DNA of 32,000 nucleotides. It comes from Pseudoalteromonas translucida KMM 520. GTDB taxonomy: Bacteria > Pseudomonadota > Gammaproteobacteria > Enterobacterales > Alteromonadaceae. A program made the position numbers and the translations under genes. Shown here in pieces: positions 12,620 through 31,477 of this stretch (position 1 is the first letter of the stretch; every line of letters starts with the position of its first letter). The stretch lies in NCBI RefSeq assembly GCF_001465295.1, contig NZ_CP011034.1:1740001-1772000 (forward strand), given 5' to 3'. The notes beneath the pieces are model-generated. The model did not search any database. It saw nothing but the letters and a program-made list of their open reading frames with translations, and was not told the DNA's origin.

Positions 12620-12631
12620 CTTGAGGTGTGT

Positions 12632-14292: not shown

Positions 14293-14741
14293 ATTAGTTA
14301 AGTTAATATTGAATATGTTCCATTCCGACCAATAAAAGCATGAACATTTGTAGTTAAGCTCGGTTGTGGCTTTTTAACAACTTTGAATTTTAAGTCTTTG
14401 TTACCAAACTCATCTAGACTTGGACTAAAAGCAAAATGGACTTCCCAGCTTTCACTAGACACCGGCTTATAATCTTAAAGTACAAAACGGAAGTAAACTT
14501 CCGGCTTGTAAGCTTGTATTGGTATATTCCGAAATTAAACTTCCGTTTCTAGGGCTTTAAAGGTAGTTATCGGTAATATACTTCTTTTTTTGATAGCGTT
14601 AACCTAGATAGCTATATGAACAACTTTTCGGGGTCTCCTTTGAGCGAAAACCGGACACTGAAAAAGTTAAATTTATTCCTACTTCTTTGAGTAGGAGCCT
14701 AATTTTGTCCGATAACATTATTAAACGCCGTTTTGGGGCAA

Positions 14742-14877
14742 AATAACATGCTTAATTCCTAGCTGTTTTAATTACTTGTTTACAAAGGTAATTATTGGTG
14801 AAATTATCAGGGTATGTAATATACGCCGTTTTGGTGTGTTATAAACCACCAAAATGGTGTTCAATAAGCTGTTATGT
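14742..14877 (+). repeat. attC-like site preceding the first cassette ORF
   Basis: The left arm ATAACAtGCTTAaTT pairs with the right arm AATAAGC-TGTTAT. The two unpaired bases are on the left arm, as in canonical attC. It ends in GTTATGT (GTTRRRY-like) 31 nt before the ORF start. Confidence 0.5.
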
Positions 14878-14907
14878 GTTCCTCAGAGTATTGGTGTTAA
14901 TTAAATT

Positions 14908-15801
14908 ATGGAAGATCTAAGAAGAACATGTTTCTTTTGTGCCGAGAGAATTGAAGAAAAGAAAACTCTAGAGCATATTATTCCTAATAGCCTTTTAGGA
15001 AAGCTAAGTATTAAAGAAAAAACAATAACAGGGCAAAAAGAAACTCAATATAGTCGAGTAAAAGTACCTGCCCATTCTACTTGTAATAGTGGATTTGGAA
15101 GTGACTTTGAAAACAGAGCGCTTGAGCTACTTGAGGATCCTGATTTGTTGTATGAAAGTATAACGAATGAAGAGGGTGGCATAGCAATGATGTATGGCCC
15201 TGACGAATCAGATACCGCAATAATTACTACATGGTTATCAAAGATTTATTATGGCTTGTTTTACTATGATCTCATTTCCACACAAGATGATGATTGGAGA
15301 AATATTTGTTCGAGCGTGATAGCTAATGATAATTTTGAATACGTGCGCCGTTCATACAAAAATGGTCATGGATTCCAATTACCTTCAAGCTTATATGTAT
15401 TTAAAACAAATAATTTAGATACCGACCTAACTACTTTCATTGAGCCTAGCAGTATAATGTTAAAGGTAGGGGCAATAACATTAATACTTTGTATCAGTGA
15501 TGGTTACTTAACTAAGAATTATCTGAACGGTGATACGCTAGAGCGGTTAAGGAAAAATATTCAAACTGAAGATGAAACGAATATAAATTTTCCATCGCAT
15601 AAAATGGCTTTTGCGGAAATATTGGCACTTCGTAGTTGTATTCCCAAAACCCCTAAGTTCGTCACTAGTGATAATCAAGTAATTAACATGAGTTTATCTA
15701 CAATGGTTTCCAATCCAGACAAGTACTACCAAATAAATGATGATAGGTATAAGGAAGCTAGAATTGAGATACTTGGTAAGTTTGGTATAAAGTTAGGTTA
15801 A
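14908..15801 (+). CDS. Cassette ORF: HNH-family nuclease-like protein (297 aa)
   Basis: CFFCAERIEEKKTLEHIIPNSLLGK...VPAHSTCNSGFG gives the CxxC...EH...N...H..CN arrangement of the HNH motif. Confidence 0.7.
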   Translation: MEDLRRTCFFCAERIEEKKTLEHIIPNSLLGKLSIKEKTITGQKETQYSRVKVPAHSTCNSGFGSDFENRALELLEDPDLLYESITNEEGGIAMMYGPDESDTAIITTWLSKIYYGLFYYDLISTQDDDWRNICSSVIANDNFEYVRRSYKNGHGFQLPSSLYVFKTNNLDTDLTTFIEPSSIMLKVGAITLILCISDGYLTKNYLNGDTLERLRKNIQTEDETNINFPSHKMAFAEILALRSCIPKTPKFVTSDNQVINMSLSTMVSNPDKYYQINDDRYKEARIEILGKFGIKLG

Positions 15802-15808
15802 ATAAACA

Positions 15809-15907
15809 CATAGCAAGGCGTTTAAACGGAACAAAAACAGTGGGTTACGTTTCTCTTCGCTACACATTATAACCCACAATTTTTGTCCGCTTAACGCGGC
15901 GTTAGTT
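15809..15907 (+). repeat. attC-like site (family A)
   Basis: Inverted arms GGAACAAAAACAGTGGGTTA / TAACCCACAATTTTTGTCC. It ends in GTTAGTT and is near-identical in layout to 22770-22867. Confidence 0.6.
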
Positions 15908-15944
15908 TTCTCATCAACATCATCATTTATCAACAAGGATAGAA

Positions 15945-16184
15945 ATGGATACTTTCATTGAATTTGTAAAATCAGACATTGGGGTCACGCTGGCTTGGCT
16001 ATGTACTGTAGGAAGTACATTGTTTGCGGTGATTGCATCAAAGAAAAATAAACAGTTGAAAATAAAAATTGGCGAAATAACAAAGAATTCAACAGTAGAT
16101 AATAGTAAGGATAGTGTTATGCAAAACGGCCAGAAGAATGTATATACAAAGACCAACTCTGGCGGCATGAAAATTGATATGTAA
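15945..16184 (+). CDS. Small single-pass membrane protein (79 aa), first gene of the four-gene cassette
   Basis: AAGGA RBS 6 nt before the ATG. TM helix IGVTLAWLCTVGSTLFAVIAS followed by an Asn/Lys-rich tail. Confidence 0.55.
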   Translation: MDTFIEFVKSDIGVTLAWLCTVGSTLFAVIASKKNKQLKIKIGEITKNSTVDNSKDSVMQNGQKNVYTKTNSGGMKIDM

Positions 16185-16195
16185 GGACTAAACTC

Positions 16196-16780
16196 TTGAC
16201 CATAGGAAATGAAGGGGGTAAACCCCCAGCAAATAAAACAGTTCACGTTGAACGTAATGCTGGAAATATCATAATCGGGGATTCACCCGAATATGAGATC
16301 AGCTCGGCTATAAATGAATTGCTAAAGTCATTAGCTAACAAGCCGTTTACGTTTAAGAAAAGCAGAAGACGCCCATCCTCTGAAACAGTTGTGAAGATTA
16401 AATACAATAGTCTTAAAGCTAAAAGTCATATCATAAAGCAATACTTAGATCATTCCTCAAAAGTAGAAGAAGCCTATTCCGAGATAGACTCATTGATAAC
16501 TTTTGGAAAAGATACAATCCTGCAAAATTTAAACGATTTATACTATCTTGCTTTAGACGCTGTTGAAATCGACTATCTAACTTGCGATATAGACATAGCT
16601 AAAATCAGAGAAAATTCAGAGTTCATTTTGGATTTTATTATTCAAAGATTAAAAAACACCGTATTTGAATCAAAAAACACTCCAGCTTACAAAGAGCATG
16701 TTGAATTGGGCGTGAATGTCGTCGTCGCTCATGCTTTTATTGAGTGCATAATTATGGAAAACCCAACTTATGATTCCTAG
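16196..16780 (+). CDS. Putative ABC-three-component (ABC-3C) effector-component protein (C-terminal helical module only, 194 aa)
   Basis: TTG start 8 nt after AAGGA. An operon with the small middle gene and the ABC ATPase, with overlapping stop/start codons. The assignment rests on gene order and size, not on a recognised motif. Confidence 0.5.
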   Translation: MTIGNEGGKPPANKTVHVERNAGNIIIGDSPEYEISSAINELLKSLANKPFTFKKSRRRPSSETVVKIKYNSLKAKSHIIKQYLDHSSKVEEAYSEIDSLITFGKDTILQNLNDLYYLALDAVEIDYLTCDIDIAKIRENSEFILDFIIQRLKNTVFESKNTPAYKEHVELGVNVVVAHAFIECIIMENPTYDS

Positions 16781-16994
16781 AAATGGTTGTGACCCAGAAA
16801 TAAATATTGTAAGTATCGGAGCAAAAATTCTAAAGCAAGTGGCAGAGGAAAATCCGTCCTTGGATGCGATACTCACTGACTGTTCTTCAGATCTAAAAGT
16901 ATCGATTGACCACATTATATTGTCATTAGATTGGTTGTTTGCAATTAAGGCTATTGGGATTAATGGAACAGAGGTTTTTATAAATGAAGCTTGA
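16770..16994 (+). CDS. Putative ABC-3C middle component (74 aa)
   Basis: It overlaps the upstream gene by 11 nt and the downstream ATPase gene by 11 nt. Size and position match the middle component of ABC-3C systems. Confidence 0.55.
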   Translation: MIPRNGCDPEINIVSIGAKILKQVAEENPSLDAILTDCSSDLKVSIDHIILSLDWLFAIKAIGINGTEVFINEA

Positions 16995-18675
16995 TAACCT
17001 TGAAATAAAGATAAATAGCGAAGTAAAAAGATTGGTTAAATTCGAGACAGGCCTTAACCTCATCACAAACAAGCCAAATTCTGGGCGTACAGGAAACAGC
17101 GTCGGAAAATCAACATTATCAAGAGTGGTTGATTTTCTAATGCTAGGAAGCATAGACAATATTTACATCGATGAAGAGTTCAAAAAGCCAAACCTTGAGA
17201 TAGAAGCGCTTTTTAAGAACAACTTTGTAACTGCTTCTCTCAGTTTCTTTGACTTCTCAAACAAAATAAATCAAATTTCTCGAAATCTATGTGTTGGTGG
17301 AGAATCTGAATCTAAATTCTGGGTAAATGGTGAAATTGTTGAAGAAAAGGGATATGAGTCATTTATTCAGGATAAAATCTTTAATATATCTACTAGAAGG
17401 CCTTCTGTTCGAGCTGTAGCGCCTAAATTCATTAGAAATGACAGTCATAGAATGTTGAGTACGACCAAGTTTCTTGATAAACGACAAGGCCCAAAAGATT
17501 ACAGCGAACTTTTTTTATACCTTTTCGGCTTCAACAATACGTCTTTACTTACAGAGAAAAGAGATGCAACGAATCTGGTTAATAGACGAAAAAGAAATTC
17601 CACTTCAATCAATGCTCTAGTGAAAGAGCAAAAGCCAACAAGTGAGATCAAGAAATATAAGGCAGATGCTAAAGAGCTAGAGAACAACCTTTTAACATTC
17701 GAATACTCGTCAGAATATTCTAATCCAATAGAAAGGCTTTCAGAACTACAAGTAAAAGAAGACAGATATACCGAAGAGCTTCTATCAATACAGCGAAAAG
17801 TAGACAATATCAATCATACTATCGAACTATTATCCAAAGACAAAGATGGTTATTTAATCAACGAGCTTAAAGCTATATATAGTTTTTCTGGTGTAGCAAT
17901 TGATGGAGCCTTAAGAGAACTTGAAGACGTTATTTTGTTCCATAGAAATCTCGTTGAAAAAAAGAGGCGCTTTCTTACGATTGACTTGCCTAAATTGGAT
18001 GAGGAATCTGAAGGTCTTCAAGCAGAGCTCAGTTCAATACGGAAAGATAAGTTACAAGTTTTTTCTGATATGAGGTCTAAGGAAAGCTTAGACAATGTGA
18101 CTAAAAATCTGAAACGTCTTGGTGAGCTTAAAGTTGAACTTGGAAAGTTAGAAGGTCTAATGGAGCAGCAGTCCAAGGCAAAATTAGATCAAACTGAAGC
18201 TGAAGCTCAATTGCAGAAAATCCTTGAGGCTATTTCCAAAGAGATTGACTATGTTTATGAGTTTGAGAAAAAATTCAATACACATTTAGGATCTCTTACT
18301 AAAAGTCTTCACGATGAAGAATACAGCATAGACTTAGAATTCAATAAGGATAGTGGTACTTGTTCTATAGAGCTCAATAACTCAGCAACTAATCCTGAGG
18401 GTGGGAAGAAGAAAGCCGAAGTCATTGCTTTTGATTTTGCATATATACATGCCATTAATGAGTTAAAGCTGAATCGACCAAATTTTATATTTCATGACAG
18501 TATTGAGGATATTGACCAAAAACAGATTGAAGATATTTTCAAAGAGGCAAAGAAACTCCCGGGTCAACAGATTTTGTCAATGCTATCAGATAAAATATCA
18601 GAAGAAACTTACAAGGAGATATCCAAAAATGTAATCTTATCTCTTGATGAGGATGAAAAGTTCTTTTGTGTTTAA
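16984..18675 (+). CDS. ABC-type ATPase with coiled-coil insert (DUF2326 / ABC-3C ATPase-like, 563 aa)
   Basis: N-terminal strand plus P-loop (LNLITNKPNSGRTGNSVGKSTL). About 250 aa of heptad-rich coiled coil. Signature-like NPEGGKKKAEVIAFDFAY, then Walker B/D-loop RPNFIFHDSIEDID. Confidence 0.78.
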   Translation: MKLDNLEIKINSEVKRLVKFETGLNLITNKPNSGRTGNSVGKSTLSRVVDFLMLGSIDNIYIDEEFKKPNLEIEALFKNNFVTASLSFFDFSNKINQISRNLCVGGESESKFWVNGEIVEEKGYESFIQDKIFNISTRRPSVRAVAPKFIRNDSHRMLSTTKFLDKRQGPKDYSELFLYLFGFNNTSLLTEKRDATNLVNRRKRNSTSINALVKEQKPTSEIKKYKADAKELENNLLTFEYSSEYSNPIERLSELQVKEDRYTEELLSIQRKVDNINHTIELLSKDKDGYLINELKAIYSFSGVAIDGALRELEDVILFHRNLVEKKRRFLTIDLPKLDEESEGLQAELSSIRKDKLQVFSDMRSKESLDNVTKNLKRLGELKVELGKLEGLMEQQSKAKLDQTEAEAQLQKILEAISKEIDYVYEFEKKFNTHLGSLTKSLHDEEYSIDLEFNKDSGTCSIELNNSATNPEGGKKKAEVIAFDFAYIHAINELKLNRPNFIFHDSIEDIDQKQIEDIFKEAKKLPGQQILSMLSDKISEETYKEISKNVILSLDEDEKFFCV

Positions 18676-18683
18676 ACAAAAAA

Positions 18684-18741
18684 CTAACAAGTCAAATCAC
18701 TCGGACGCAGCGAAGCTGCGCCGGTGTTTGAGGCGTTATGT
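18684..18741 (+). repeat. attC-like site (short, 58 bp)
   Basis: CTAACAAGT-CAAAtCACtCGGaCGCAGC-gaa-GCTGCGCCGGTGTTTG-aggcGTTATGT is a clean stem with three unpaired bases confined to the left arm, with TAAC and GTTRRRY ends. Confidence 0.72.
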
Positions 18742-18764
18742 GTTTCAGGAGTATGGTGTTTTCA

Positions 18765-19091
18765 ATGGATAATGATGACGTAAAAATTGTAGAAGCAAAA
18801 ATGGAGTTAGAACGCATTTCTGAGCTTCAAAAGTATAAAGAAGAATTTGATAAGCTTGGTTCAAATGACTGGGGGCTTAAAGACTTTCTTTCTATTATTG
18901 CGCCATTTGGCTTACTTCTACTTGCAAATAGTTTCTTTACAATCGAGAGTGAGTTATTTCAAATAATGTGCGTTATTTTCGTTGCCTCATCTTTTGTTCA
19001 AGGCATGGTTACCGCTGAAAGTAAAAAGACAAACCGCAGAATTGATATACTGCTCAAAATCATCAAACAAGGACAGAGTAAAAACACATAA
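18765..19091 (+). CDS. Cassette ORF: small two-TM membrane protein
   Basis: Track ORF 18738..19091. The ATG at 18738 lies inside the attC core, so a later in-frame ATG (18753 or 18765) is more likely. Hydrophobic helices FLSIIAPFGLLLLANSFFTI and LFQIMCVIFVASSFVQGMV. Confidence 0.5.
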   Translation: MDNDDVKIVEAKMELERISELQKYKEEFDKLGSNDWGLKDFLSIIAPFGLLLLANSFFTIESELFQIMCVIFVASSFVQGMVTAESKKTNRRIDILLKIIKQGQSKNT

Positions 19092-19183
19092 CAACACGCC
19101 CTGAGGTGGACAGCAAGCACTAAAGCTCACTTTCCACCGCAAGTTTAGCCAACAGTCAATTGCCCCTTAGCAAAGCGTTAGGC
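19087..19183 (+). repeat. attC-like site
   Basis: It starts CATAACA (overlapping the stop codon), has the internal stem GGTGGA...TCCACC, and ends in GCGTTAGGC. Confidence 0.5.
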
Positions 19184-19211
19184 ATATCAAGGTAGAGGGA
19201 TTTATCGTTCA

Positions 19212-20903
19212 ATGAGTCAAAAAAAATCAACGCCATCACTTCCAGATCCATTTCCAACGGATAAACTTCGTTTACTTCAGTTCGGAAGTGCTGATGGTCA
19301 TAGAGATAAAGTTGCAGAGCATGCGTTTATAGAAACTTCATCTGTAAAACAATTTTATTTGAATCAACATTCAATAATTGTAGGAGCAATAGGAGCTGGC
19401 AAAAGTACTCTATTTGCCCTATTGAAGAATCATTCAGAAAAATTAGAATCATATAAAGATGATTTGATCGTACCTTTAGAAGAGGCTTTGTCATTTAATG
19501 AACTTGCTGATTTTGTTAAAAATCATTATCCAGATAAAGATGAAAAAACACTTTATCAATTATTATGGAAGTTCAGTATATTATTAAAAATCGCAATTGA
19601 ATTATCAAAGCATGAAGGCTTTCCAAATAACGATTATGAGAAGGCAGTTAACAATTTCTTAGATGATTCAAATAGTTCAGATGCTTATTCAAATATCCTT
19701 AATAAATTTAAAAAACTTATTTCTAATGCAAATGTAAAATTTGAAGCTAAGGTTGGTGACAACCCTATAGCTATAGAAGCAGGGTTGTCTGATAAAGAAC
19801 CAAAGCCCCAAAAGAAAATTAACCTTGAAGAAGTTCAAAGAGCTATATCCGACTCAATAAAAGTTCGTAATTTCAATTGTGCGACTGTGATTATTGATAA
19901 AATAGACAAGTTTATGGCTGGTGCTGAATATAATGTCCAAAGACAGTATATAGGTGCATTACTTGAAGTTGATGATGATCTATCGGCTATTCAAAACATT
20001 AATTTAAAAGTTTTTATAAGAGCAGACCTATTTGAAAGATTAGATTTCGCAGCTCTTGGTTATGACAAAGTCCATGATAACGTAATTAGATTAAAATGGA
20101 GCCACGATGAAACTCTACGTTTTTTAGCAACAAGGATAATGGTTGGATTAATACGAGCGAAGATATGTAGACCAGAAGAGATATTTCAGTCTACAGACTT
20201 AACTGAGTTTGATTTGACTTGGAGAGAAAAGTTATTTCTAAATCCTAGTGTGCCAAATATTGTTAAAAACCTGATTAATAAAAAAGAAAAATCTGAACGC
20301 GTTACAAGTATGTATGGGAAATTTGATAAAGCGATAATCACTAAAGTTTTTCCTCGTTGTGCTATTCACTTCTGCTCAAAAGAAAACAAGCAGTCAGAAT
20401 TAGATATTTTTGATTTTATAAAATCTCATTTTTTAGATGGTAACGGAATATGTACTCCAAGGTATATGTTAATTTTCCTAAAAGAAGTTGTTGAACAAGT
20501 CGCCTCATATTATGACGAAAACCCTGATCAAGTTTCAGAGCTAGTTTTAGTGGAAAAAGATTTTGAGTGGGATTTATTTAAAAAATATTGTGTGTATCAA
20601 GCTTATGTTACAGCGAAAGATATATATATAAAGAACATTGAAACTATAGACTCTACATGGACTAAAAATGTAAATGTCCTTTTGGCAAAAAGAGGTAACA
20701 AAACAAAGTTTGATTATAAATGGATTAGAGCCAACATTCCTGATATTTCAGAAAGTGAAGCAGTAGATTTCTTGTCATTTCTTCAAGTTATTGGTTTTTT
20801 GAAAATTTCAGATGCACATCAAGATATAAAAAAGAGAGGTTATGAGCTACCTATTCTATACAAGCTTTCGAATATGCCTAACAAGCCAATTAAGCGGGAC
20901 TAA
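19212..20903 (+). CDS. Cassette ORF: 563-aa P-loop NTPase of unrecognised family
   Basis: Perfect Walker A GAIGAGKST (IIVGAIGAGKSTLFALL). Walker-B-like ATVIIDKIDKF. A long helical C-terminal half. Confidence 0.75.
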   Translation: MSQKKSTPSLPDPFPTDKLRLLQFGSADGHRDKVAEHAFIETSSVKQFYLNQHSIIVGAIGAGKSTLFALLKNHSEKLESYKDDLIVPLEEALSFNELADFVKNHYPDKDEKTLYQLLWKFSILLKIAIELSKHEGFPNNDYEKAVNNFLDDSNSSDAYSNILNKFKKLISNANVKFEAKVGDNPIAIEAGLSDKEPKPQKKINLEEVQRAISDSIKVRNFNCATVIIDKIDKFMAGAEYNVQRQYIGALLEVDDDLSAIQNINLKVFIRADLFERLDFAALGYDKVHDNVIRLKWSHDETLRFLATRIMVGLIRAKICRPEEIFQSTDLTEFDLTWREKLFLNPSVPNIVKNLINKKEKSERVTSMYGKFDKAIITKVFPRCAIHFCSKENKQSELDIFDFIKSHFLDGNGICTPRYMLIFLKEVVEQVASYYDENPDQVSELVLVEKDFEWDLFKKYCVYQAYVTAKDIYIKNIETIDSTWTKNVNVLLAKRGNKTKFDYKWIRANIPDISESEAVDFLSFLQVIGFLKISDAHQDIKKRGYELPILYKLSNMPNKPIKRD

Positions 20904-20975
20904 AAACAGTTTGCTCGGTTTCGCTTCGCTACACATTTTAGCAAACAATTTTTAGCCCACTATTGGGGCGTTACC
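20877..20975 (+). repeat. attC-like site (family B)
   Basis: CCTAACAAGCC...GGGACTAAAAACAGTTTGCT / AGCAAACAATTTTTAGCCC...GGGGCGTTACC. The left core lies inside the 3' end of the ORF. Confidence 0.6.
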
Positions 20976-20978
20976 ACC

Positions 20979-21947
20979 GTCCGCTCATGGCACGTGTCAG
21001 ACTCTAACTTCGAGTCTGGCTTAGGTTCAAATTTAAGCATCGATCTGTTCTGATACTTCTAACGCATCATCAACTTCTATTCCCAAGTACCTGACTGTGC
21101 TCTCCAGTTTTCTATGGCCAAGTAGAAGCTGACAGGCTCTTAAATTTTTAGTTTTTTTGTAAATTAGTGATGGTTTGGTACGTCTCATAGAATGAGTGCC
21201 ATATTGAGTCTTATCTAACCCAATTGAGGTGACCCAAGAATCAACTATACGTCCATATTGACGGGTTGAAAGGTGTTCAGAGGAATGAATTCGTGACTTA
21301 AACAAGTAATCATAAGAATTGAGAGTAAATTGCTCTATGAGCGCCACAATTGATTTCCTTGTATTTCCAGTAATTTCAAATTGAACAGGCATACCAGTCT
21401 TTTTTTGAACGACTATTGCCCTTGATTGGATTGTTTTACCATGTGCGATGTCATTAACTTTTAGTGAAACTAAATCACACCCTCTTAGTTTGCTATCTAT
21501 GGCTAGGTTAAATAGTGCTAGATCTCTTATTTTATGAAAAAGTTCTAGTCGTATTCGGATAGCCCATATTTGCTGTAATTTTAGAGGTAACTTTTGTCCT
21601 ACAAGCTTATTTTTATTCCAAGGCTCTTTAGGCTGATATATAGTTAACTGGTGCATTAGTTGTACTCCGGTGTTTATGGAGTTTTAAGCTTAGCTCGCTA
21701 CAAAAGAATTCGGGTATGAGCGATAACCAGTCATTGGGGTTCGTTAAATATCGTCGTTAACTGATTGGTCAAACTGTCATTTTCGTTTATATTCATGAAA
21801 ATGAGCGCCGAGCGCATATTGTTCTATTTAACTTTTCTTTAAAGTTTTAGAAAACTTCGTGATAGTAATACCTTAGGTTATTTGTTAAAACTATATAATG
21901 TAGAAAAATGAGCGTAGCGTCGGCAGAAACATGCGCGATGAGCGCAC
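20979..21947 (+). mobile_element. 969-bp element bounded by about 15-bp imperfect inverted repeats and carrying a short tyrosine recombinase; proposed autonomous copy of the R-element family
   Basis: Left end GTCCGCTCATGGCAC (20979-20993). Right end GCGCGATGAGCGCAC (21933-21947), whose reverse complement GTGCGCTCATCGCGC matches 12/15. The interior is the recombinase gene plus the conserved R body (21709-21947). Confidence 0.55.
21033..21656 (-). CDS. Stand-alone catalytic-domain tyrosine recombinase (207 aa, FimB/FimE-sized); not a canonical integron integrase
   Basis: RDLALFNLAIDSKLRGCDLVSL (Arg I), YGTHSMRRTKPSLIY (H-x-x-R), LLGHRKLESTVRYLGIE (His/Tyr nucleophile). It is too short to contain an N-terminal core-binding domain or the IntI-specific insertion. 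Confidence 0.85.
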   Translation of the reverse strand: MHQLTIYQPKEPWNKNKLVGQKLPLKLQQIWAIRIRLELFHKIRDLALFNLAIDSKLRGCDLVSLKVNDIAHGKTIQSRAIVVQKKTGMPVQFEITGNTRKSIVALIEQFTLNSYDYLFKSRIHSSEHLSTRQYGRIVDSWVTSIGLDKTQYGTHSMRRTKPSLIYKKTKNLRACQLLLGHRKLESTVRYLGIEVDDALEVSEQIDA

Positions 21948-22007
21948 TATTAAATTGTTATGCCTTTTTAGTCATCTGCAAGGCTCAATATATAAATAAG
22001 GATATCA

Positions 22008-22775
22008 ATGAATTTTTTACAGTTCGACTTAGGAAACCTCAAACGGGGTGAGATTGTTGAGGTAACACTAACAAGTGGTGCCAATGTAAGATTAATGACT
22101 AGTTCAGAGTTTAATAATTACAAAAACGGAAGAAAGCATAGGTTTATTGGCGGACTAGCTAAAAGATCACCTGTAAACCTTCAAGTAACAAGTTCAGGTC
22201 GATGGTACGTTGCTGTAGATATGCAAGGACTTCGAGGTTCAACAAAAGCATCCGTGAGAACACTTCCAGGAATGTTACCTGAAATACAAGAACGACCATT
22301 ATCAGAAGTGCCTAGCCTAGTTAGGGATAATGTTCCTCCTCCTCTTGAGTCTGGTGGTGAAACTCACGATGTATTCATATCTCATGCATCCGAAGATAAA
22401 GATGATTTAGTTCGCCCTTTGGCAAACGCTTTAATTGCCAAAGGTCTAAATGTTTGGTTTGATGAAATGACACTTAGAATTGGTGATAGTCTAAGACAAA
22501 AAATTGATAAAGGGCTAGCTAATAGCCGTGTAGGTTTAGTGGTTTTATCTCCATCCTTTATTAAAAAAGGTTGGACTAACTACGAACTCGATGGAATTGT
22601 CACAAGAACAGTATCAGGCGAACAGGTTCTTCTGCCTATTTGGCACGATATCACCAAACAACAAGTTGTTGATTTTAGTCCTTCTTTAGCTGACAAAGTC
22701 GCTCGTAGTACAGCAACTCATACAATAGATGAGATCGCTCAGGAGATATATGATCTTCTTGAGTCTAAGGCATAA
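22008..22775 (+). CDS. Cassette ORF: DUF1883-TIR domain protein
   Basis: N-terminal MNFLQFDLGNLKRGEIVEVTLTSGANVRLMTSSEFNNYKNGRKHRFIGGLAK is the DUF1883 pattern. C-terminal DVFISHASEDKDDLVRPLANALIAKGLNVWFDE...VVLSPSFIKKGWTNYELDG is a TIR domain with the conserved Glu. Confidence 0.85.
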   Translation: MNFLQFDLGNLKRGEIVEVTLTSGANVRLMTSSEFNNYKNGRKHRFIGGLAKRSPVNLQVTSSGRWYVAVDMQGLRGSTKASVRTLPGMLPEIQERPLSEVPSLVRDNVPPPLESGGETHDVFISHASEDKDDLVRPLANALIAKGLNVWFDEMTLRIGDSLRQKIDKGLANSRVGLVVLSPSFIKKGWTNYELDGIVTRTVSGEQVLLPIWHDITKQQVVDFSPSLADKVARSTATHTIDEIAQEIYDLLESKA

Positions 22776-22867
22776 CAGGTACTTAAACGCAACTAATACA
22801 GTGGGTTAGGTTTAGCTACACTACACATTATAACCCACAATTTTAGTCCGCTTAGTGCGTCGTTACC
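22770..22867 (+). repeat. attC-like site (family A)
   Basis: GCATAACAGG...ACAGTGGGTTAGG / ATAACCCACAATTTTAGTCC...GTCGTTACC. Confidence 0.6.
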
Positions 22868-22870
22868 ACT

Positions 22871-23134
22871 GTCTGAAATTGGCACTGAGCCGAATTTCGG
22901 CATAGAGCGATAACCAGTCATTGAGATTGGCTAAATATCGTAGTTAATTGATTGGTCAAACTGCTCTTTGCTCATATATTCATAGAAATGAGCAACGTGC
23001 GTATATTATTGCATTTAACTTTACTTAAAAGTTTTAGAAAACTTAATGATAGTAATACCTTAGGTTATTTGCTAAAACTATATAATACGAAAAAATGAGC
23101 GTGGCGTCGGCAGAAATATGCACGATGAGCGCAC
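22871..23134 (+). mobile_element. R element copy 2 (264 bp, no recombinase; left inverted repeat degenerate)
   Basis: Collinear by eye with 21709-21947 and 24983-25221. It abuts the GTTACC of the attC on the left and is followed by tattaaattGTTAGGC on the right. Confidence 0.6.
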
Positions 23135-23163
23135 TATTAAATTGTTAGGCTTCAGGGGTATCA

Positions 23164-23601
23164 ATGTTAGATAGTAAATTGGTTTCATTACATAAGCATT
23201 GGATTACTGCCGATGCCATAAAACAAGTTGTTAGCGCGCCAGTTGATGAGGAAACAGGTTTACCTGAAGAGCTTCAAGAACTTGCAAAATACCATTCAAT
23301 GTTTCAAAGATTAACAGTGTTATATTCTCTTCTCTACATTGTAGTTGAAGGCTATCGAGAATTGAAATATGAAAATAAAATTATAGATGATTTGTTAGCA
23401 AATGAGGATTTCGTAGATGCTTTACGACTATTTAGAAATGCAATATTTCATTACCAGAAACAACCAATTCCTGAGAAAGCGATGAAATTTTTAGAGCTCA
23501 CGGAAAGCGAATTATGGATACGTAAATTGCATAGCTCTTTTGGGGCATTCTTTGAGAAAGAGTTACCAATAGGTGAAACTCTCAATCAGCTTAAAGCCTA
23601 A
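23164..23601 (+). CDS. Cassette ORF: small helical protein with a HEPN-like RNxxxH motif (145 aa)
   Basis: LRLFRNAIFHYQ is an Rx4H motif in a predicted all-helical protein. Confidence 0.55.
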   Translation: MLDSKLVSLHKHWITADAIKQVVSAPVDEETGLPEELQELAKYHSMFQRLTVLYSLLYIVVEGYRELKYENKIIDDLLANEDFVDALRLFRNAIFHYQKQPIPEKAMKFLELTESELWIRKLHSSFGAFFEKELPIGETLNQLKA

Positions 23602-23672
23602 CAAGGCATTACCAATGTTCGCTCATGGCACTTAGCTGATCTTCGTCAAAGAGCGATAAGCTGTCATTCAGG
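23596..23672 (+). repeat. Collapsed attC (18 bp: GCCTAACAAG/GCATTACC), then a solo left box and junction of the R family
   Basis: Box GTTCGCTCATGGCAC (23617-23631), then ttagctgatcttcgtcaaaGAGCGATAAGCTGTCATTCAGG. Similarity to the R body stops after about 25 nt. Confidence 0.55.
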
Positions 23673-23874
23673 TGAGTCGTCATTAACTTAGTAAGAATAA
23701 GAGAGGATTTTCATCTTTTTTACATGTTTATATAAGCTACAGAAAGAATAATATTTATAGCTGGCAATAGCTTACAGTATTTTCTATTAATATAAATTCA
23801 CAAAATAAGGACGTTTTCGCGCTAAAATAGGGAAAGTGTCCTCTGATAAAGTTGTTATATTCAAGGAGTGATCA

Positions 23875-24789
23875 ATGAAGTTCTCAGGTAAGTCGATACG
23901 AACATTAACCAAATTAATCAAGGTAACTGGTGCCGCGACTAAAGTTAGGTTAACTGTCCAACTAAGCAGTATTCCCCAAGAGTTACTCGTTCAACTAGGC
24001 TTTGATAACACTCCTGAACAAGGAGACTTCTTGATACCTTCTTCATTGGGTAAATTCACAAGTTTTAATGTGAATGGTGCTACCAAAATTAGAAAAGATC
24101 TCCCCTTAGAGCCTGAATCAGTGATGTTCTATGGTTCATCAAGAGATTGGCACGGAGGAATTCACTACGGAATTAGGACGAGAACCATTGATAAATACCC
24201 ACGAGAGTATATTTCCGCACCATCTGAAACCTTTGAAATAGTCAAAATTAAGGGAAATTTACATCTTTCTTCTTCGGAGTTAGATTTAAGCGATAAAGAT
24301 GAAACACGAAACATCCATGTTACCAATATGATGCTGGAGTGCTTTTCTGAGTTCGACATTTACGATTTGGAAAAAGAAGAAATAGTTGGACCGAAGCTAA
24401 AGCGATTGCAGTGGGATATATTGCCTCAAGGAGAGTCACCTTGGATTAAAGCAAAGCCAATTATCCTCAATAGAACTGAGCACCTTCCGGAGAAAGATAA
24501 AAAAGTAATTGAACATAGAATGAAGGTAATTTCTCGAAGAGAGCCTGATTTTTTAGCCACAGGAAGAGCCGGTTTTAGCGGGTATTTTGTTTACGGCTTC
24601 AAAGACAAAGACGTATACGTTTTAGAAAGTATGGAACTTGATAATGCAACATACGTTTTCAATAGTGACTGGGAAGCGATATCAAAATTAACCAAAAGCC
24701 AAATTATCAATAGCGAATTACCGCATCAACGAATTATCCACAATAAAAAATGGAATGTATCGCTAGGCCGCGCGATATCTGGAAATTAA
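23875..24789 (+). CDS. Cassette ORF: hypothetical 304-aa protein, no family recognised
   Basis: Track ORF with AAGGAG RBS 7 nt upstream (ttcAAGGAGtgatcaATG). Confidence 0.6.
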   Translation: MKFSGKSIRTLTKLIKVTGAATKVRLTVQLSSIPQELLVQLGFDNTPEQGDFLIPSSLGKFTSFNVNGATKIRKDLPLEPESVMFYGSSRDWHGGIHYGIRTRTIDKYPREYISAPSETFEIVKIKGNLHLSSSELDLSDKDETRNIHVTNMMLECFSEFDIYDLEKEEIVGPKLKRLQWDILPQGESPWIKAKPIILNRTEHLPEKDKKVIEHRMKVISRREPDFLATGRAGFSGYFVYGFKDKDVYVLESMELDNATYVFNSDWEAISKLTKSQIINSELPHQRIIHNKKWNVSLGRAISGN

Positions 24790-24790
24790 A

Positions 24791-24874
24791 TATAACAAGC
24801 AATCAAGAAGGACTAAAAACAGCTTGCTCGGTTCCGCTTTGCTTCACATTTTAGCCTCTTATTGAGGCGTTACC
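24791..24874 (+). repeat. attC-like site (family B) with a deletion of about 15 nt in the right arm
   Basis: It aligns with 20877-20975 but lacks the AAACAATTTTTAGCC segment. It ends in GGCGTTACC. Confidence 0.5.
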
Positions 24875-24877
24875 AAT

Positions 24878-25221
24878 GTCCGCTCATGGCACAATTGCTA
24901 AGTTAGGCTGTGAGCGAATTTGAGACATTGACCAAAGTGCAAAAATTGCACATTGGTCACCACCTCTAACTCAGAGGCGTACTTCGGCAAAGAGCGATAA
25001 CCGGTCATTGAGATTAGCTAAATATAATAGTTAATTGATTGGTCAAACTGCTCTTTACTCATATATTCATGAAAATGAGCTGCTCGCGCATATTGATCTA
25101 TTTAACTTTACTCAAAAATTTTAGAAAACTTAGTGATAGTAATACCTTAGGTTATTTGTTAAAACTATATAAAGCAGAAAAATGAGCGTTAAGTCGGCAG
25201 AAATATGCGCGATAAGCGGAC
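24878..25221 (+). mobile_element. R element copy 3 (344 bp, no recombinase, with an extra nested segment of about 83 bp)
   Basis: Left GTCCGCTCATGGCAC (24878-24892). Right GCGCGATAAGCGGAC (25207-25221), whose reverse complement GTCCGCTTATCGCGC matches 12/15. The extra segment, about 24893-24975, contains the hairpin 24929-24959. Confidence 0.6.
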
Positions 25222-25274
25222 TATAAAATGTTAGTTTTATATTTGAGTTATTCAGAATTAAAGGTGTCAACTAG

Positions 25275-25937
25275 TTGAAAAATGTACTTATATTTATGGT
25301 TGTTGGATTGTATCTGGTAGCTTGTGGCTTTTTCATTGGTGTTACAGATAGAGCGGCTATGTTTGACGGGGTCAAATGGACTGATGTTGGTACTTTAGTT
25401 GTTACATCTCTTGGTTTTATTTTTGGTTTCTATACCTACTTTCAATGGTTAAATAACAAGCGAAAGGAGGATTCATATTTAGTCGCCAAAAGATACATCG
25501 CTGCTATAGATGAAATAGAAGAAAACTTACATGAGTTGCGATTTCATTATGATCATATATGTCCTACACCAGGATTGATGGTTGAGGATAAAGATGTATC
25601 AATCAAACGTATTGAGCATCTTAATATTGTTTGGGGCAACCTATATCAAGCACGGCGAAACCTTTATAAATCTAATAGAGAGCTATCATTCTGGAATGTT
25701 TGTCTAGCTAAAGAGGCTGTAGAAGACTACAACTATTTGAATAAGTCACTGGACAATATTAGTGTGATATCTTCAGTTTTGAACAATCAATTATTCCATT
25801 TTGTAAGCAGTAGACAAAATATGGATGGAGTGATTCGAGAGAAGCAAAGGTTTGACGAGTTACATGATTCAGTTCATAAAATCATTCAACATCGCGTTGA
25901 TTGTGGCTTTAAGTCAATGTTTACCTTCGAAATATAA
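25275..25937 (+). CDS. Cassette ORF: 220-aa protein with two N-terminal TM helices
   Basis: VLIFMVVGLYLVACGFFIGV and TLVVTSLGFIFGFYTYFQWL, then a helical soluble domain. TTG start after AAGGTG. Confidence 0.6.
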   Translation: MKNVLIFMVVGLYLVACGFFIGVTDRAAMFDGVKWTDVGTLVVTSLGFIFGFYTYFQWLNNKRKEDSYLVAKRYIAAIDEIEENLHELRFHYDHICPTPGLMVEDKDVSIKRIEHLNIVWGNLYQARRNLYKSNRELSFWNVCLAKEAVEDYNYLNKSLDNISVISSVLNNQLFHFVSSRQNMDGVIREKQRFDELHDSVHKIIQHRVDCGFKSMFTFEI

Positions 25938-25959
25938 ATGTAACGAAAAAAACGTTCAA

Positions 25960-26038
25960 GAGTAACTCCAAACGTGTGCTAGTTTTGCTGCGCTCACAAT
26001 ATGGCACACGGTTGTCACACTTTAACGTGGAGTTGAGG
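25960..26038 (+). repeat. attC-like site (divergent sequence)
   Basis: GAGTAACTCCAAACGTGTGC ... GCACACGG..ACGTGGAGTTGAGG. The TAAC/GTTG ends pair, with a bulge in the right arm. Confidence 0.4.
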
Positions 26039-26205
26039 CTGCAGAATTACTTTTTTTAAGGAAAACAGCCTGTTTTATGTGTTCCAAATGCATTACCTAA
26101 TGCTCTAAAAAGGCTTAGAGTGAATTGTAGGAGCTATTTTTTAATTGAATTTGACTGTTGGAGTTATTCTACAGTCTAGTTAGGCAATAAACCAATGGAA
26201 GTTTG

Positions 26206-26919
26206 ATGCTCAATAGTAGGTTTTTCGATAAAGATAGAAGTGTTCAAGAGCGGTGGTTTCGAATGAAATTCCACAGAAATTTTGGGCTGCAGATAAAAGC
26301 TGTTTTCTTGTGGCGACTTTACCGTAAATTGGAAAAAGAATTTAAAGCAAAAGATAAAGTTATAAACGGAGCTATAGAAATCACAGTGAAAGAATGTAAG
26401 AAGGTCAATGAGGAGCTGTTTCCTGCGACAAAGCAGTTTCTAAATATTGGCCTGTATTTCTTGCTTGCTGAGAGAGATATCCAAGCTTTAAAAGCTGATG
26501 CTTTCGCTCATCCTAATGAGACAAAAAGGAATATTGCGTTACGTGCACTGCTTTTAACCATTTATGAGTGGGATATGGGAAAAGTTACTGGACGGCGAAT
26601 GCAGTTTATATACGAATCGACAGGATTGTCTGATTCTTCAAGGAGTATGGTTGTTGATGCCCTAAAAAAATTAAAGAAAGCAAGAAAAGCAATTGAAAAT
26701 GAAATTTCTGAGGCAAGGCACAACACTATTGCCCATAGAGAGGCCGACGCTCTACATCAGTACGAAATTATCTCAGAGCTGAAAATCATGGATTTTTCCA
26801 TAGCTTTGACTGGTTTGTACGAAGCATCAGATATGCTGTTGAAGTCTTTGGTAAAAGCGATGCTTGAAATTGGTACGACGGAAAACCTGTTTAATCAGGT
26901 GAATTATCGAAAAAAATAG
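26206..26919 (+). CDS. Cassette ORF: HEPN-motif protein (AbiU2-like pattern), 237 aa
   Basis: ISEARHNTIAHREADAL is an Rx5H motif in a helical context. ATG 26206 is preferred over TTG 26203. Confidence 0.55.
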   Translation: MLNSRFFDKDRSVQERWFRMKFHRNFGLQIKAVFLWRLYRKLEKEFKAKDKVINGAIEITVKECKKVNEELFPATKQFLNIGLYFLLAERDIQALKADAFAHPNETKRNIALRALLLTIYEWDMGKVTGRRMQFIYESTGLSDSSRSMVVDALKKLKKARKAIENEISEARHNTIAHREADALHQYEIISELKIMDFSIALTGLYEASDMLLKSLVKAMLEIGTTENLFNQVNYRKK

Positions 26920-26980
26920 CCTAACAAGCTGCTGCCGACGAGCGGCAGAGTGCAGAGTTACTAATGTCCGCAATTGGCAC
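26919..26980 (+). repeat. Short attC-like site (26919-26961), then a solo left box (26966-26980)
   Basis: GCCTAACAAGCTGCTGCCG-acga-GCGGCAG...AGTTAC, then ctaatGTCCGCAATTGGCAC. Confidence 0.4.
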
Positions 26981-26989
26981 ATATGCGTC

Positions 26990-27325
26990 TTATGTATCTT
27001 CCATAATATCTTTAAGTGCTATGCGTTTTAACTGCGTGCCATCGCGGTACCCTTTTGCTAACAAATCGTCTAATACAGCACCAGTGTAGAATGTGTAACC
27101 ATTCTCTTCACCAACGGGGAGCTCATATGTAGAGCCTGATATTTGAGGCCAAGTCCAGTAATTCCCGCACGATGATAATTTAGGTAGAACCATTGAACCT
27201 GAACTAACTCTCCACTCATCATCATTTCGCCATGAACAAAACAATACATAACATGGTTTATCATCAACTGTTTGAAACGTTAAAACAACCCACCCCTCTG
27301 GCCTATGTTTTATATTCAATTTCAT
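26990..27325 (-). CDS. Hypothetical 111-aa protein, reverse-oriented relative to the cassette array
   Basis: Track ORF; no family recognised. Confidence 0.5.
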   Translation of the reverse strand: MKLNIKHRPEGWVVLTFQTVDDKPCYVLFCSWRNDDEWRVSSGSMVLPKLSSCGNYWTWPQISGSTYELPVGEENGYTFYTGAVLDDLLAKGYRDGTQLKRIALKDIMEDT

Positions 27326-28323
27326 CCCTTTTTACATTAAAATTAAATTTAGCATTCATATTAATCCTAACCCAATAAATCAAAATATTAGTTTTCCTAG
27401 AAAATGAGTGAAAGAGTCATTAAATATTTTTGATACCTTATCGATAGAAACAAAGTCTGTTGATCGATATTTAAAAGGCACAAGTGGCGTTAAGCACCTT
27501 ATTACAATTGGTACTACTGCAGGTCAATTTGACGATATCGAGCAGATGTTTTGTAAAAAAATCCGGCCCAGTGATTCCTAGAACGAAGAGCTGGATTGAC
27601 GATGTAATTAGGTAATACAACAATTGGATTATCACCTTTAACAGTTGGTAAGTACAAAAAGTTATTTTACCATATTTACCTAGCGTAATATCACAACAAA
27701 GGCAATGGATTGTCAAAGCTCATATAAGCTTTATATGAAAAGTTTAAGAAATCTGCAAACTAAGTTATCAACCCATCTCAACACTTAACTAAAGAACAAT
27801 TAGATTTACATGCAAGAGAAAAAAAAGGTCTAGTCGTTCAGCGGTAGAGCATAGGACTAGCATAAACGTGATAGAGCAAATATTGATATATTCCAGTCGT
27901 AAGCTAAATATTGTCCCAGCTATAAATATAGAAGCTGGCGTCCGATTAGTGGTGAATGCAACACTACTGAGCATTTCAGAGCAATTATTGGCTAAATTCA
28001 ATCATTTTTTGATTTCAGCGGCAGCTTAAAAAATTTTTTGAAGTAGAAACATAAAGTACATGTACCATATAGTTAGGAATGAATAAAAACTCCATAAAAT
28101 TCAGCTGGCCATCATGAAAAATTAAGTGTACTTACTCTTTTGCCAATATTAGTTAAATAGGATTTGTATTAGGCTATTCAGTATAACTAACTATAACTAG
28201 ATGTATTTAAAGCCTGCTCTTTGCTGATTATTTAGTGTATTTTGCGTTTTTAAGTAAACTCATTACGGCTACTTTGCGCTAATACAAATACATAACTAAT
28301 GAACGATTACTCTACTTACTAAG

Positions 28324-28415
28324 CAGATTAAACAGATTAAACAGATTAAACAGATTAAACAGATTAAACAGATTAAACAGATTAAACAGATTAAACAGAT
28401 TAAACAGATTAAACA
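28324..28415. repeat. Perfect tandem repeat, 10 copies of the 9-mer CAGATTAAA plus a partial CA
   Basis: Counted directly: units start at 28324, 28333, ... 28405. Confidence 0.95.
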
Positions 28416-29648: not shown

Positions 29649-30068
29649 TTAATTAATTTTGCCAAGCTCATCTTTCAGATTCTTTAGTTTAAGCTTTTCT
29701 GCTGTAATCTTTTTTTGATACTTACTCACTTTATCACTTTCATCTGCTTGTTTAGCATCTAGCAGATCTTCTTCATATTCAGCAATATCATTGTTAGCAT
29801 CGTTTATTTTTTCTAGTAAATCTTCTTTCAAGGTTTTTTCGCTGCAGTTACTTTTTGCTGCATGTAATGCTTTTTTCAATCCTTCAACCTTGTACTTATT
29901 ACCATGTTCCTTCGCTATGGCAAGCTGGCTTTCTATCTCGAAAAACTTTTTTTCACAGCCAGTCAAATCACTACACGCTAATGATGCAGCAAGCGATGTA
30001 GATGACAGCATAAATAAAATACCTGCTGTTGTTGGTATTACTTTATATTTTGAAAATATATTAATCAT
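29649..30068 (-). CDS. DUF1090 (YqjC-like) secreted protein
   Basis: Signal peptide, then CSDLTGCEKKFFEIESQLAIAKEHGNKYKVEGLKKALHAAKSNCSEK. ATG 30068 with GGAGA 5 nt upstream is preferred over the track TTG 30080. Confidence 0.7.
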   Translation of the reverse strand: MINIFSKYKVIPTTAGILFMLSSTSLAASLACSDLTGCEKKFFEIESQLAIAKEHGNKYKVEGLKKALHAAKSNCSEKTLKEDLLEKINDANNDIAEYEEDLLDAKQADESDKVSKYQKKITAEKLKLKNLKDELGKIN

Positions 30069-30114
30069 AAGGCTCTCCAATCATAATTATTAGTAAATTT
30101 GGCGTGATTGTACA

Positions 30115-30150
30115 AATAAAAAAGCGCGAAATATAAATTTAGCGCTTTTA
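30115..30150 (-). terminator. Possible weak intrinsic terminator after miaE
   Basis: The minus strand reads AAAAGCGC-taaatttatatttc-GCGCTTTTTTATTT. The stem is short and the loop long. Confidence 0.35.
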
Positions 30151-30174
30151 AGGGCTTTGTATTAACAGCTCAAA

Positions 30175-31467: not shown

Positions 31468-31477
31468 ACTATTAAAT

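Follow-up and report, generated by a model that had tools for sequence, protein, structure and literature searches.

Can an array of gene cassettes be the work of an integron when no integron integrase (IntI) is encoded beside it, and what are the conserved blocks that break it up? The question is raised by a stretch of 32,000 nucleotides from Pseudoalteromonas translucida KMM 520 (RefSeq assembly GCF_001465295.1, contig NZ_CP011034.1, positions 1,740,001 to 1,772,000 of the forward strand), which we call the window and number from its first letter. A preliminary description, made from the letters alone, had reported at 14742-27496 at least ten plus-strand units, each an open reading frame (ORF) unit followed by an imperfect palindrome, and had read them as a cassette array of attC sites, rich in conflict-related genes and parted from its integrase. 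Our computational analysis partly confirms this observation: the interpretation was largely right and also incomplete, as a gene for a tyrosine recombinase of 207 amino acids (aa), located inside the array, had been overlooked. The array is a real integron-type attC cassette array without IntI in reach, and is either a cluster of attC sites lacking integron integrases (CALIN) or an array parted from its platform. We consider it likely that this CALIN-type array was made by an IntI acting in trans, and that it is overlaid by an independent system of modules that goes with the small recombinase.

The attC sites of the array

Folded with DNA parameters, the bottom strands of 15810-15909, 18685-18741 and 20879-20974 each form a single imperfect hairpin of textbook attC type. 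TAAC pairs with GTTA, the 3-nt spacer (AAG opposite GGC) is unpaired, and the bulges of the long stem lie mainly on the left (R''-L'') arm, though not exclusively there as had been claimed; the bottom strand folds more stably than the top one, with z-scores of -5.1 to -6.2 against shuffled sequences. The sites at 22773-22866 and 24793-24873 have decayed but are related to the 20879 site and make up one sequence family with it. Six sites are 54-99 nt long, and two elements fall outside this range, at 26921-26966 (46 nt) and 23598-23612 (15 nt); published attC sites are described as having an unpaired central spacer, extrahelical bases, a variable terminal structure and a length of 57-141 bp (PMC5371416).

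We aligned 13 sequences, five of them from the window and eight from the loci L001, L006 and L009 (comparison sequences carry the letter L; L001 is the Pseudoalteromonas assembly GCA_030408045, and L104 is the IncC plasmid pVb1796). The alignment keeps TAAC:GTTA as four R-box pairs in 11-12 of the 13 sites, next to an unpaired spacer, and compensatory changes are found in all five L-box pairs (four pairs in 5-6 sequences each, the fifth in one). A covariance model, R1, was built from this alignment, which holds only Pseudoalteromonas sites. The R1 scores of the five window sites are not independent, since those sites are training members; the site at 19087-19182, absent from the training set, is matched at 20.9 bits (approximate E 0.026). 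Applied to the complete integron of pVb1796, in which blaVMB-1, dfrA1 and blaCARB-4 come after a gene annotated as an integron integrase, R1 gives exactly three matches, one after each of these genes (E 5e-12, 2e-3 and 9e-4, respectively), and no other match below E 5; in plasmid R100, of which 50 kb were scanned on both strands, only one match ranks above the single aadA1 attC. The window has just one match outside the array with E below 1, at 2276-2417 on the minus strand (E 0.002), and it does not look like a TAAC...GTTA hairpin; the next matches, at E about 1, lie in AT-rich intergenic DNA at 28.9-29.1 kb.

The boundaries of the cassettes agree with the sites. In eight of nine cassettes the R'' box matches the 5' end of its own cassette in at least 9 of 11 bases (9-11), and the mean agreement is 9.33 of 11 for cognate pairs as against 6.74 for non-cognate ones. 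R'' complements the 5' end of its own cassette because both stem from the G/TT crossover, and the agreement therefore places the cassette boundaries at G/TT. The heptamer GGCGTTA is seen 7 times where 2.0 are expected, a count that none of 100 shuffles attains; TAACAAG by itself shows no enrichment (11 matches, 7.7 expected). Two other scores were given up for the covariance model: a hairpin-energy scan anchored on AAC...GTT, which gave no separation from background, and a banded arm-alignment score, which returned 6 sites against a shuffle mean of 1.8 (maximum 4), had a top score that the best shuffle equalled, and failed to pick up most of the listed sites.

The palindromes that had been described are present where they were placed, and six of the ten (15809, 18684, 19087, 20877, 22770 and 24791) behave as attC; those at 14742, 25960 and 26919 are weak or atypical, and the tentative tenth, at 27366-27496, is unsupported (z -1.5 to -1.8, no R1 match). 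The first of the atypical elements (14713-14878) is a split, duplicated form of a 64-nt hairpin that is found intact in L006, and its R1 match is weak (14803-14876, E 8). The ends that had been given for the palindromes need to be relaxed: the site at 15809 starts with TAGC and not with TAAC, and the ending GTTRRRY was too strict, as GTTA alone is conserved and 25960 has GTTG. The stated distance of 25-60 nt from GTT to the next ORF likewise applies at four or five boundaries, whereas at four others a module of 250-1000 bp lies between.

Relatives of these sites are found in other replicons. The 15809 site is 90% identical to L001 2585-2676, and the 20877 site is 85% identical to 270410-270504 of pPBSW1, a Pseudoalteromonas megaplasmid with a four-attC array, and 75% identical to the blaVMB-1 attC. 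The latter (L104 5000-5093) scores 61.7 bits with R1 and belongs to the same sequence family as the window sites, which suggests that the blaVMB-1 cassette originated in an array of Pseudoalteromonas or Alteromonadales type; the attC family of a clinically relevant carbapenemase cassette is in this way linked to Pseudoalteromonas-type arrays. In L001, a fragment of a group II intron reverse transcriptase (RVT_1, GIIM; 1223-2039, minus strand) adjoins the attC at 2582-2677 (plus strand), an arrangement of the group IIC-attC intron kind.

Absence of an integron integrase

Pfam profiles run over all ORFs of the window return one protein of the Phage_integrase family, the 207-aa recombinase, and tblastn with IntI1 and the IntI of pVb1796 as queries finds no IntI in the window, as the preliminary description had held, or in 11 Pseudoalteromonas loci. 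IntI genes have been reported in nine Pseudoalteromonas strains and on pPBSW1 (PMC9229058). The array comprises six supported attC sites between 15809 and 24874 with no IntI in the 32 kb, and the label CALIN is right because IntI is absent from the window, though reported in other Pseudoalteromonas. The hairpins, the covariation, the cross-check of R1 and the agreement of R'' with the cassette 5' ends lead to the conclusion that an IntI-type enzyme built the array. We hypothesize that about nine plus-strand cassettes, each an ORF or a small operon with its attC, were assembled by such an integrase at G/TT, and that the enzyme is presumably encoded elsewhere in the genome or has been lost.

A 207-aa tyrosine recombinase

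The recombinase consists of a catalytic domain only, complete with the R, K, HxxR, H and Y residues. Its first catalytic arginine is at residue 57 (146 in IntI1), it has neither an N-terminal domain nor the IntI-specific insert, with 71 aa from the lysine to HxxR as against 105 aa in IntI1, and it shares 21% identity with IntI over 100 aa. It is thus no IntI, a protein of about 320 aa with a core-binding domain and an insertion between the lysine and HxxR. An AlphaFold2 model (pLDDT 83) finds XerA, Cre, XerH and the Tn1549 integrase among its fold matches in the PDB, with VchIntIA in 36th place. The tyrosine-type invertase profile of NCBIfam (PRK09871) gives 20.4 bits where the cut-off is 222, which places the protein outside FimB/FimE.

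The same protein, at 100% identity, is encoded in P. arctica and other Pseudoalteromonas, and the exact 207-aa sequence occurs in 223 sequence blocks of the genome collection, in many genomic contexts. There are at least 8000 homologues of about 207 aa, named only 'tyrosine-type recombinase/integrase'; relatives at 65-72% identity are found in Pseudomonas, Stutzerimonas, Halomonas, Methylomonas, Thauera, Massilia and Burkholderiales. The family is present in Pseudoalteromonas, Alteromonas, Paraglaciecola and Colwellia. The gene often edges variable regions of divergently oriented small ORFs, and often sits in heavy-metal islands as well. No near-identical copy of the recombinase module was found among the plasmids of PLSDB, and the literature yielded no named equivalent or account of this recombinase family or its sites, which is weak evidence of novelty. 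In Thauera (L080 7442-9530) and in an uncultured gammaproteobacterium (L045 11046-13169) the small recombinase lies about 1.7 kb from a tyrosine recombinase of 291-304 aa and a protein of about 400 aa, a pairing that may be another multi-recombinase element; the full-length IntI1-like matches in these two sequences are the 291-304-aa recombinases, each paired with the ~400-aa ORF, and were judged not to be IntI.

Recombinase sites, junctions and leaders

A second family of sites goes with this gene. These sites are about 19 bp long and consist of an outer arm, a CGCTCA core and an inner arm, with arms such as CAATGTC and TGGCAC; two of them flank the recombinase gene in inverted orientation (Table 1), and the block conserved among recombinase copies begins at 20992-20995. 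The motif CAATGTCCGNNNNTSGC, with at most two mismatches, occurs 10 times in the window, where 0.41 are expected, and always between 14644 and 26978. The order is strict, from attC GTTA to a plus-strand site, a 19-bp spacer and a minus-strand site, with alternating orientations. In this manner the array is interrupted at 20972-21959, 22864-23146, 23610-23856 and 24871-25232, and it is bounded by single sites at 14644 (minus) and 26962 (plus). The 57-bp junctions without a recombinase (22867-22923, 23613-23669 and 24874-24930) are internal-deletion versions of the recombinase-bearing unit. CALIN, or an array without its platform, was right as the core of the earlier reading, which missed that the 207-aa recombinase and a second site family interrupt and bound the array.

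Behind each minus-strand site stands a conserved leader, 200-270 bp in length, whose final GTTA coincides exactly with the next cassette boundary. Leader type 1 has three copies in the window, all with a promoter-like TGGTCA-16-TATATT, and is also found in L001, L002, L010 and L011; type 2 has one copy in the window, adjoins the recombinase in L003, L007 and L008, and is also present in pPBSW1. Neither folding nor R1 reveals a convincing attC at the 3' end of these two types. We propose that the leaders may drive expression of the next cassette in an array that has no Pc promoter. The inverted repeats of the Pseudomonas relatives contain GTTAGCG and CGCTAAC, which resemble R' and R'' boxes; the idea that they are attC halves was rejected because this part is not conserved in other genera.

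Recombination footprints in related genomes

Across 11 loci the recombinase block shares 96-99% identity, and on either side divergence sets in precisely at the core of the site. A segment of 88 bp has an exact inverted counterpart (88 of 88 positions) when L005 (12105-12192) is compared with L006 (12105-12192) and L003; it is bounded by inverted ...CTCGCTC and GAGCG..., with a left flank identical at 200 of 200 positions and right-hand partners that differ from GAGCG outward. Leader type 3 is represented by five copies in four genomes, alike from GAGCG outward and with unrelated inner flanks. These alignments show recombination at the CGCTCA core, both as inversion and as exchange of partners, and the 88-bp inversion is a natural recombination footprint of the small-recombinase system. 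Around homologues from many genera, with protein identities as low as 65%, there are inverted repeats that have a GTCCGCTnnTGGCC core. In Alteromonas, Paraglaciecola, Colwellia and Glaciecola the recombinase gene and repeated junctions occur with no R1 match, and these attC-free loci indicate that the second system does not need attC. The 207-aa protein would be the enzyme acting on the CGCTCA sites, and would invert, excise and exchange gene modules between them. In Alteromonas, the exchange of 'additive flexible genomic island' cassettes has been ascribed to unexplained illegitimate recombination (PMC4898812). The variable regions and heavy-metal islands that often house the small recombinase are of this same kind.

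Cargo of the cassettes

The earlier view of the cargo as conflict-related holds by profile for three cassettes. In the ABC-3C system, CTD10 and MC6 both score past the Pfam thresholds, and PADLOC assigns the 563-aa component to PDC-M68B (E 4e-32); the Sll1717-family P-loop ATPase scores 118.6 bits with NCBIfam NF047389 (cut-off 75), has the Walker A sequence GAIGAGKS, and matches PDC-M28C weakly; and the protein with DUF1883 and TIR domains matches Pfam, PADLOC PDC-S66 (E 6e-69) and ThsB-like entries. The HNH and HEPN assignments did not stand in the same way: HNH_5 falls below the Pfam cut-off in the protein of cassette 1, which has no PADLOC match, and for the 145-aa and 238-aa proteins, which match no profile, the evidence for HEPN is their Rx4-6H motifs (RNAIFH and RHNTIAH). 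Four ORFs of the array have no family match of any kind. Homologues of the DUF1883-TIR gene, with about 71% nucleotide identity, are carried by many plasmids of Escherichia, Klebsiella, Citrobacter and Enterobacter. Anti-phage cargo has been reported for integrons (PMC12614218). Taken alone, the array is ordinary, one more CALIN, and it confirms that marine integron cassettes store genes of anti-phage type.

Table 1. Features of the cassette array and of the DNA to its left (positions in the window)
Feature	Position	Strand	Evidence or remark
Left-boundary recombinase site, A' type (outer arm and GAGCG core)	14644-14662	minus	motif scans
Atypical attC-like element, leader type 3 (site 14742)	14713-14878	plus	TAAC...GTTA, 166 nt
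Cassette 1 ORF, 297 aa, HNH-like	14908-15801	plus	Pfam HNH_5, 22.5 bits (cut-off 27.5)
attC, R'' degenerate (TAGC)	15809-15906	plus	fold -19.1 kcal/mol, z -5.1; R1 97 bits (training member)
Cassette 2: 79-aa ORF and three-gene ABC-3C system	15945-18675	plus	Pfam, PADLOC
ABC-3C gene, CTD10	16196-16780	plus	
ABC-3C gene, MC6	16770-16994	plus	
ABC-3C gene, 563-aa component	16984-18675	plus	
attC, 54-58 nt	18683-18740	plus	fold z -6.2; R1 38 bits
Cassette 3 ORF, 117 aa, no family match	18738-19091	plus	Pfam, NCBIfam, PADLOC
attC, outside R1 training	19087-19182	plus	R1 E 0.026; R'' and cassette 5' end agree in 11/11 bases
Cassette 4 ORF, 563 aa, Sll1717-family P-loop ATPase	19212-20903	plus	NCBIfam NF047389
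attC	20877-20975	plus	fold -18.7 kcal/mol, z -5.1
Recombinase site, A type (outer arm, CGCTCA core, inner arm)	20975-20993	plus	directly past attC GTTA
Tyrosine recombinase, 207 aa	21033-21656	minus	Pfam Phage_integrase, E 8e-15
Recombinase site, A' type, inverted relative to 20975-20993	21718-21736	minus	motif scans
Leader type 1, conserved, non-coding, ends in GTTA at cassette boundary	21737-21959	plus	alignment of three window copies
Cassette ORF, 255 aa, DUF1883 and TIR	22008-22775	plus	Pfam, PADLOC
attC, decayed relative of the 15809 site	22771-22867	plus	fold, R1
Gene-less module: 57-bp junction (A 22867-22885, 19-bp spacer, A' 22905-22923) and leader type 1	22864-23146	plus	
Cassette ORF, 145 aa, RNAIFH (HEPN-like) motif only	23164-23601	plus	motif scan
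attC remnant, truncated to R'' and R' (CTAACAAGGCATTAC)	23598-23612	plus	R'' and cassette 5' end agree in 10/11 bases
Gene-less module: 57-bp junction (23613-23669) and leader type 2	23610-23856	plus	
Cassette ORF, 304 aa, no family match	23875-24789	plus	Pfam, NCBIfam, PADLOC
attC with right-arm deletion	24791-24874	plus	fold, R1
Gene-less module: several recombinase sites and leader type 1	24871-25232	plus	
Recombinase site in this module	24874-24890	plus	
Recombinase sites in this module	24914-24930, 24939-24955, 24994-25010	minus	
Cassette ORF, 220 aa, no family match	25275-25937	plus	hydrophobic N-terminal region (read from sequence)
Weak attC-like hairpin ending in GTTG	25944-26037	plus	R1 12.7 bits, E 2; fold z -2 to -2.9
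Cassette ORF, 238 aa, RHNTIAH motif only	26203-26919	plus	no profile match
Short attC-like hairpin, 46 nt	26921-26966	plus	fold; no R1 match
Right-boundary recombinase site, A type	26962-26981	plus	motif scans
Junction (A, spacer, A') outside the array, no attC beside it	7050-7115	minus	between HEPN/Toprim and 1086-aa genes
C-protein-like HTH regulator	1757-2065	plus	left defence block
HNH protein, PDC-M01B	2463-3062	minus	left defence block
Protein of 1086 aa, no match		minus	left defence block
HEPN/Toprim gene	7164-8351	minus	left defence block

Alternative explanations

Several points weigh against a CALIN made in trans and overlaid by an independent module system. Three to four of the ten palindromes are weak, atypical or unsupported (14742, 25960, 26919 and 27366-27496), R1 is a surrogate for the attC model of IntegronFinder and its E-values are rough, and the search for IntI in this strain covers the 32-kb window. 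The 207-aa protein is tied to the CGCTCA sites by adjacency and co-conservation, and promoter-like matches in the region overall are no commoner than chance. Furthermore, an A-type site follows attC GTTA in most Pseudoalteromonas copies, which hints at a functional coupling of the two systems, so that 'independent' may understate their relation.

Could the palindromes be generic intergenic repeats or terminators, and the array a mere run of co-oriented genes? Several sites do stand directly past stop codons, as terminators would, and in the generic hairpin-energy scan other parts of the window reach similar energies; this reading is nevertheless scarcely credible and already largely refuted, because the only R1 match better than E 1 outside the array lacks the TAAC...GTTA hairpin, the attC stems covary against conserved AAC/GTT triplets, R'' boxes match the 5' ends of their own cassettes, R1 recovers the known attC sites of a complete integron, and just one of 13 terminator-like matches in 14300-28200 falls inside a site (19112-19097, minus strand, in the weak 19087 site). 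A second proposal is that the units of junction and leader are ordinary cassettes moved by IntI, gene-less promoter cassettes plus one with the recombinase as cargo, and that the inverted sites have no present function. The units lie exactly between G/TT boundaries, leader type 3 ends in an attC-like hairpin, and promoter-active gene-less cassettes are documented in the superintegrons of Vibrionaceae (bioRxiv 10.1101/2023.11.21.568050). We hold this to be unlikely, as inspection of the sequence shows no R'' box in the units that would pair with their own 5' end, TTACCA, leaders 1 and 2 have no R1 match, recombinase sites occur without attC both on the minus strand of the window (7050-7115) and in other genera, and the breakpoints of inversion and partner exchange are at the CGCTCA core, not at G/TT.

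A third alternative, in our judgement quite an improbable one, would make the 207-aa recombinase the array's own integrase, with the leader as attI in an integron-like platform that needs no IntI. The layout mirrors the order intI-Pc-attI-cassettes, with attC cassettes upstream and divergent in the window, L001, L008 and L009, but the recombinase gene of the window has cassettes to its left and to its right that point the same way. All leader types end in an A-rich stretch and GTTA at the G/TT boundary of a cassette; this is a mere resemblance to attI, and we know of no general sequence model for attI sites. That the 11 Pseudoalteromonas loci have no IntI within 10 kb, and that the Alteromonas gene has conserved chromosome on one side and small divergent ORFs, variable in their make-up, on the other, would suit such a platform, yet IntI genes exist in Pseudoalteromonas, and in Alteromonas, Paraglaciecola, Colwellia and Glaciecola the family is common without R1 attC. 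The missing insert and N-terminal domain, the low rank of VchIntIA among the structural neighbours, and the possession of conserved double-stranded sites of its own all set the recombinase apart from IntI. An IntI acting in trans, with the small-recombinase modules laid over its array, remains the reading that we prefer.

Comparison with known systems

The array belongs to the CALIN or chromosomal-cassette kind, with which it shares co-oriented units of ORF and attC, one related attC family, no intI nearby and some anti-phage cargo. Unlike those arrays, it is broken and bounded by a second site family and holds a tyrosine recombinase other than IntI, and several of its attC sites are truncated (46 nt, 15 nt); unlike a fixed intI locus, it lies in a mobile-looking island beside umuDC and an IS3 element. 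The gene-less promoter cassettes of Vibrionaceae superintegrons (bioRxiv 10.1101/2023.11.21.568050; PMC11014356) resemble the interrupting units in that both are ORF-less units (here 250-360 bp) between cassette boundaries, with a conserved promoter-like element facing the next cassette. The window units differ from them in having a 57-bp palindromic junction, in deriving from a recombinase-bearing unit, and in lacking a clear attC of their own, and their promoter is putative.

Similar comparisons can be made with systems outside the integrons. As in the dif modules of Acinetobacter plasmids (PMC6449649, PMC13141974), short alternating inverted sites flank gene modules that are shuffled, inverted and shared between replicons; in contrast to them, the sites here are not the 28-bp sites of XerC/D, a dedicated 207-aa recombinase lies inside one junction, and the setting is that of chromosomal islands of marine bacteria. 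By eye, the CGCTCA sites bear no resemblance to the dif consensus. Shufflons (R64 Rci with its sfx sites) and the FimB/FimE invertases likewise combine many short inverted sites with one tyrosine recombinase, and the 207-aa protein is like FimB/E in its size and catalytic-domain-only make-up, with inversion seen by comparison of genomes. The segments here, however, are whole unrelated genes with their own leaders, not alternative 3' ends (C-terminal exons) or a promoter switch, and the exchange of partners between genomes amounts to mobility beyond inversion. Elements that target attC (IS1111-attC, group IIC-attC introns) share with the junctions a fixed position right past the GTTA of many unrelated attC sites; the junctions go with a tyrosine recombinase instead of a DEDD transposase or a reverse transcriptase and are also found away from attC. 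The window units thus fail the defining features of promoter cassettes, dif modules and shufflons.

In our view, the second system outweighs the array in importance: it consists of a tiny, highly conserved recombinase with sites of its own and footprints between near-identical strains, and throughout Alteromonadales it turns up repeatedly in heavy-metal islands and defence islands. If the enzyme does move modules, it would provide a mechanism for the travel of 'additive' island cassettes between species, which PMC4898812 left open, and would show how expression and reshuffling of cassettes remote from any Pc could proceed with no IntI. A bolder version is possible, though we regard it as doubtful: the recombinase and the CGCTCA sites would define an undescribed and very widespread module-exchange system that inverts, excises and swaps modules, would supply the mechanism that has been lacking for the 'additive flexible genomic island cassettes' of Alteromonadales, and would in Pseudoalteromonas be physically coupled to attC, with an IntI-independent platform for the uptake and expression of cassettes as its extreme form.

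Genomic island and setting

The array (14.6-27.0 kb) sits inside a Pseudoalteromonas genomic island of more than 28 kb, in a window whose G+C content is 35-38%. The island also contains umuDC, an IS3-family transposase and minus-strand genes of defence type. The block from endonuclease I to umuDC (11023-14306) is 93% identical to L001, and this homology ends at 14306, just past umuC; at the umuDC-adjacent locus the cassette content varies from strain to strain. The DNA from 28146 to 32000 is core genome (DUF1090, MiaE, sulfotransferase, MAPEG), and homology to island-less relatives breaks off at about 28146. Relatives with an identical MiaE have beyond DUF1090 either housekeeping genes, a 403-aa integrase or other cargo. 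Since their homology stops there and their content beyond DUF1090 varies, we regard the DNA to the left of about 28146 as a genomic island that occupies a known hotspot of insertion. In another strain (L098 12658-13869) the same hotspot beside DUF1090 is taken by a tyrosine integrase of classical type, 403 aa long, and a conventional integrase may therefore lie at the distant end of the window's island, beyond the window itself.

To the left of the array, a second block of defence-type genes occupies 1-8400 on the minus strand (Table 1). The IS3-family transposase (9025-10217; two ORFs, rve domain; 91% identical to the copy in L008) lies between this block and the endonuclease I-umuDC block. 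An A'-like site is found near 3268-3290. Rfam, at gathering thresholds, and ARAGORN gave no match in the window.

Two repeats were noted near the right-hand boundary of the island. The 13-mer TTGTTATGCCTTT at 21955-21967, the 5' boundary of the TIR cassette, recurs at 28565-28577, in a core intergenic region beside the island; its GTTATGCCTTT part is kept in six relatives with an identical MiaE, including island-less ones, and about 0.015 chance matches are expected for an 11-mer. The recurrence may mark a secondary GTT insertion site, or it may be coincidental. About ten tandem copies of CAGATTAAA stand at 28325-28405, inside the conserved flank beside the island boundary.

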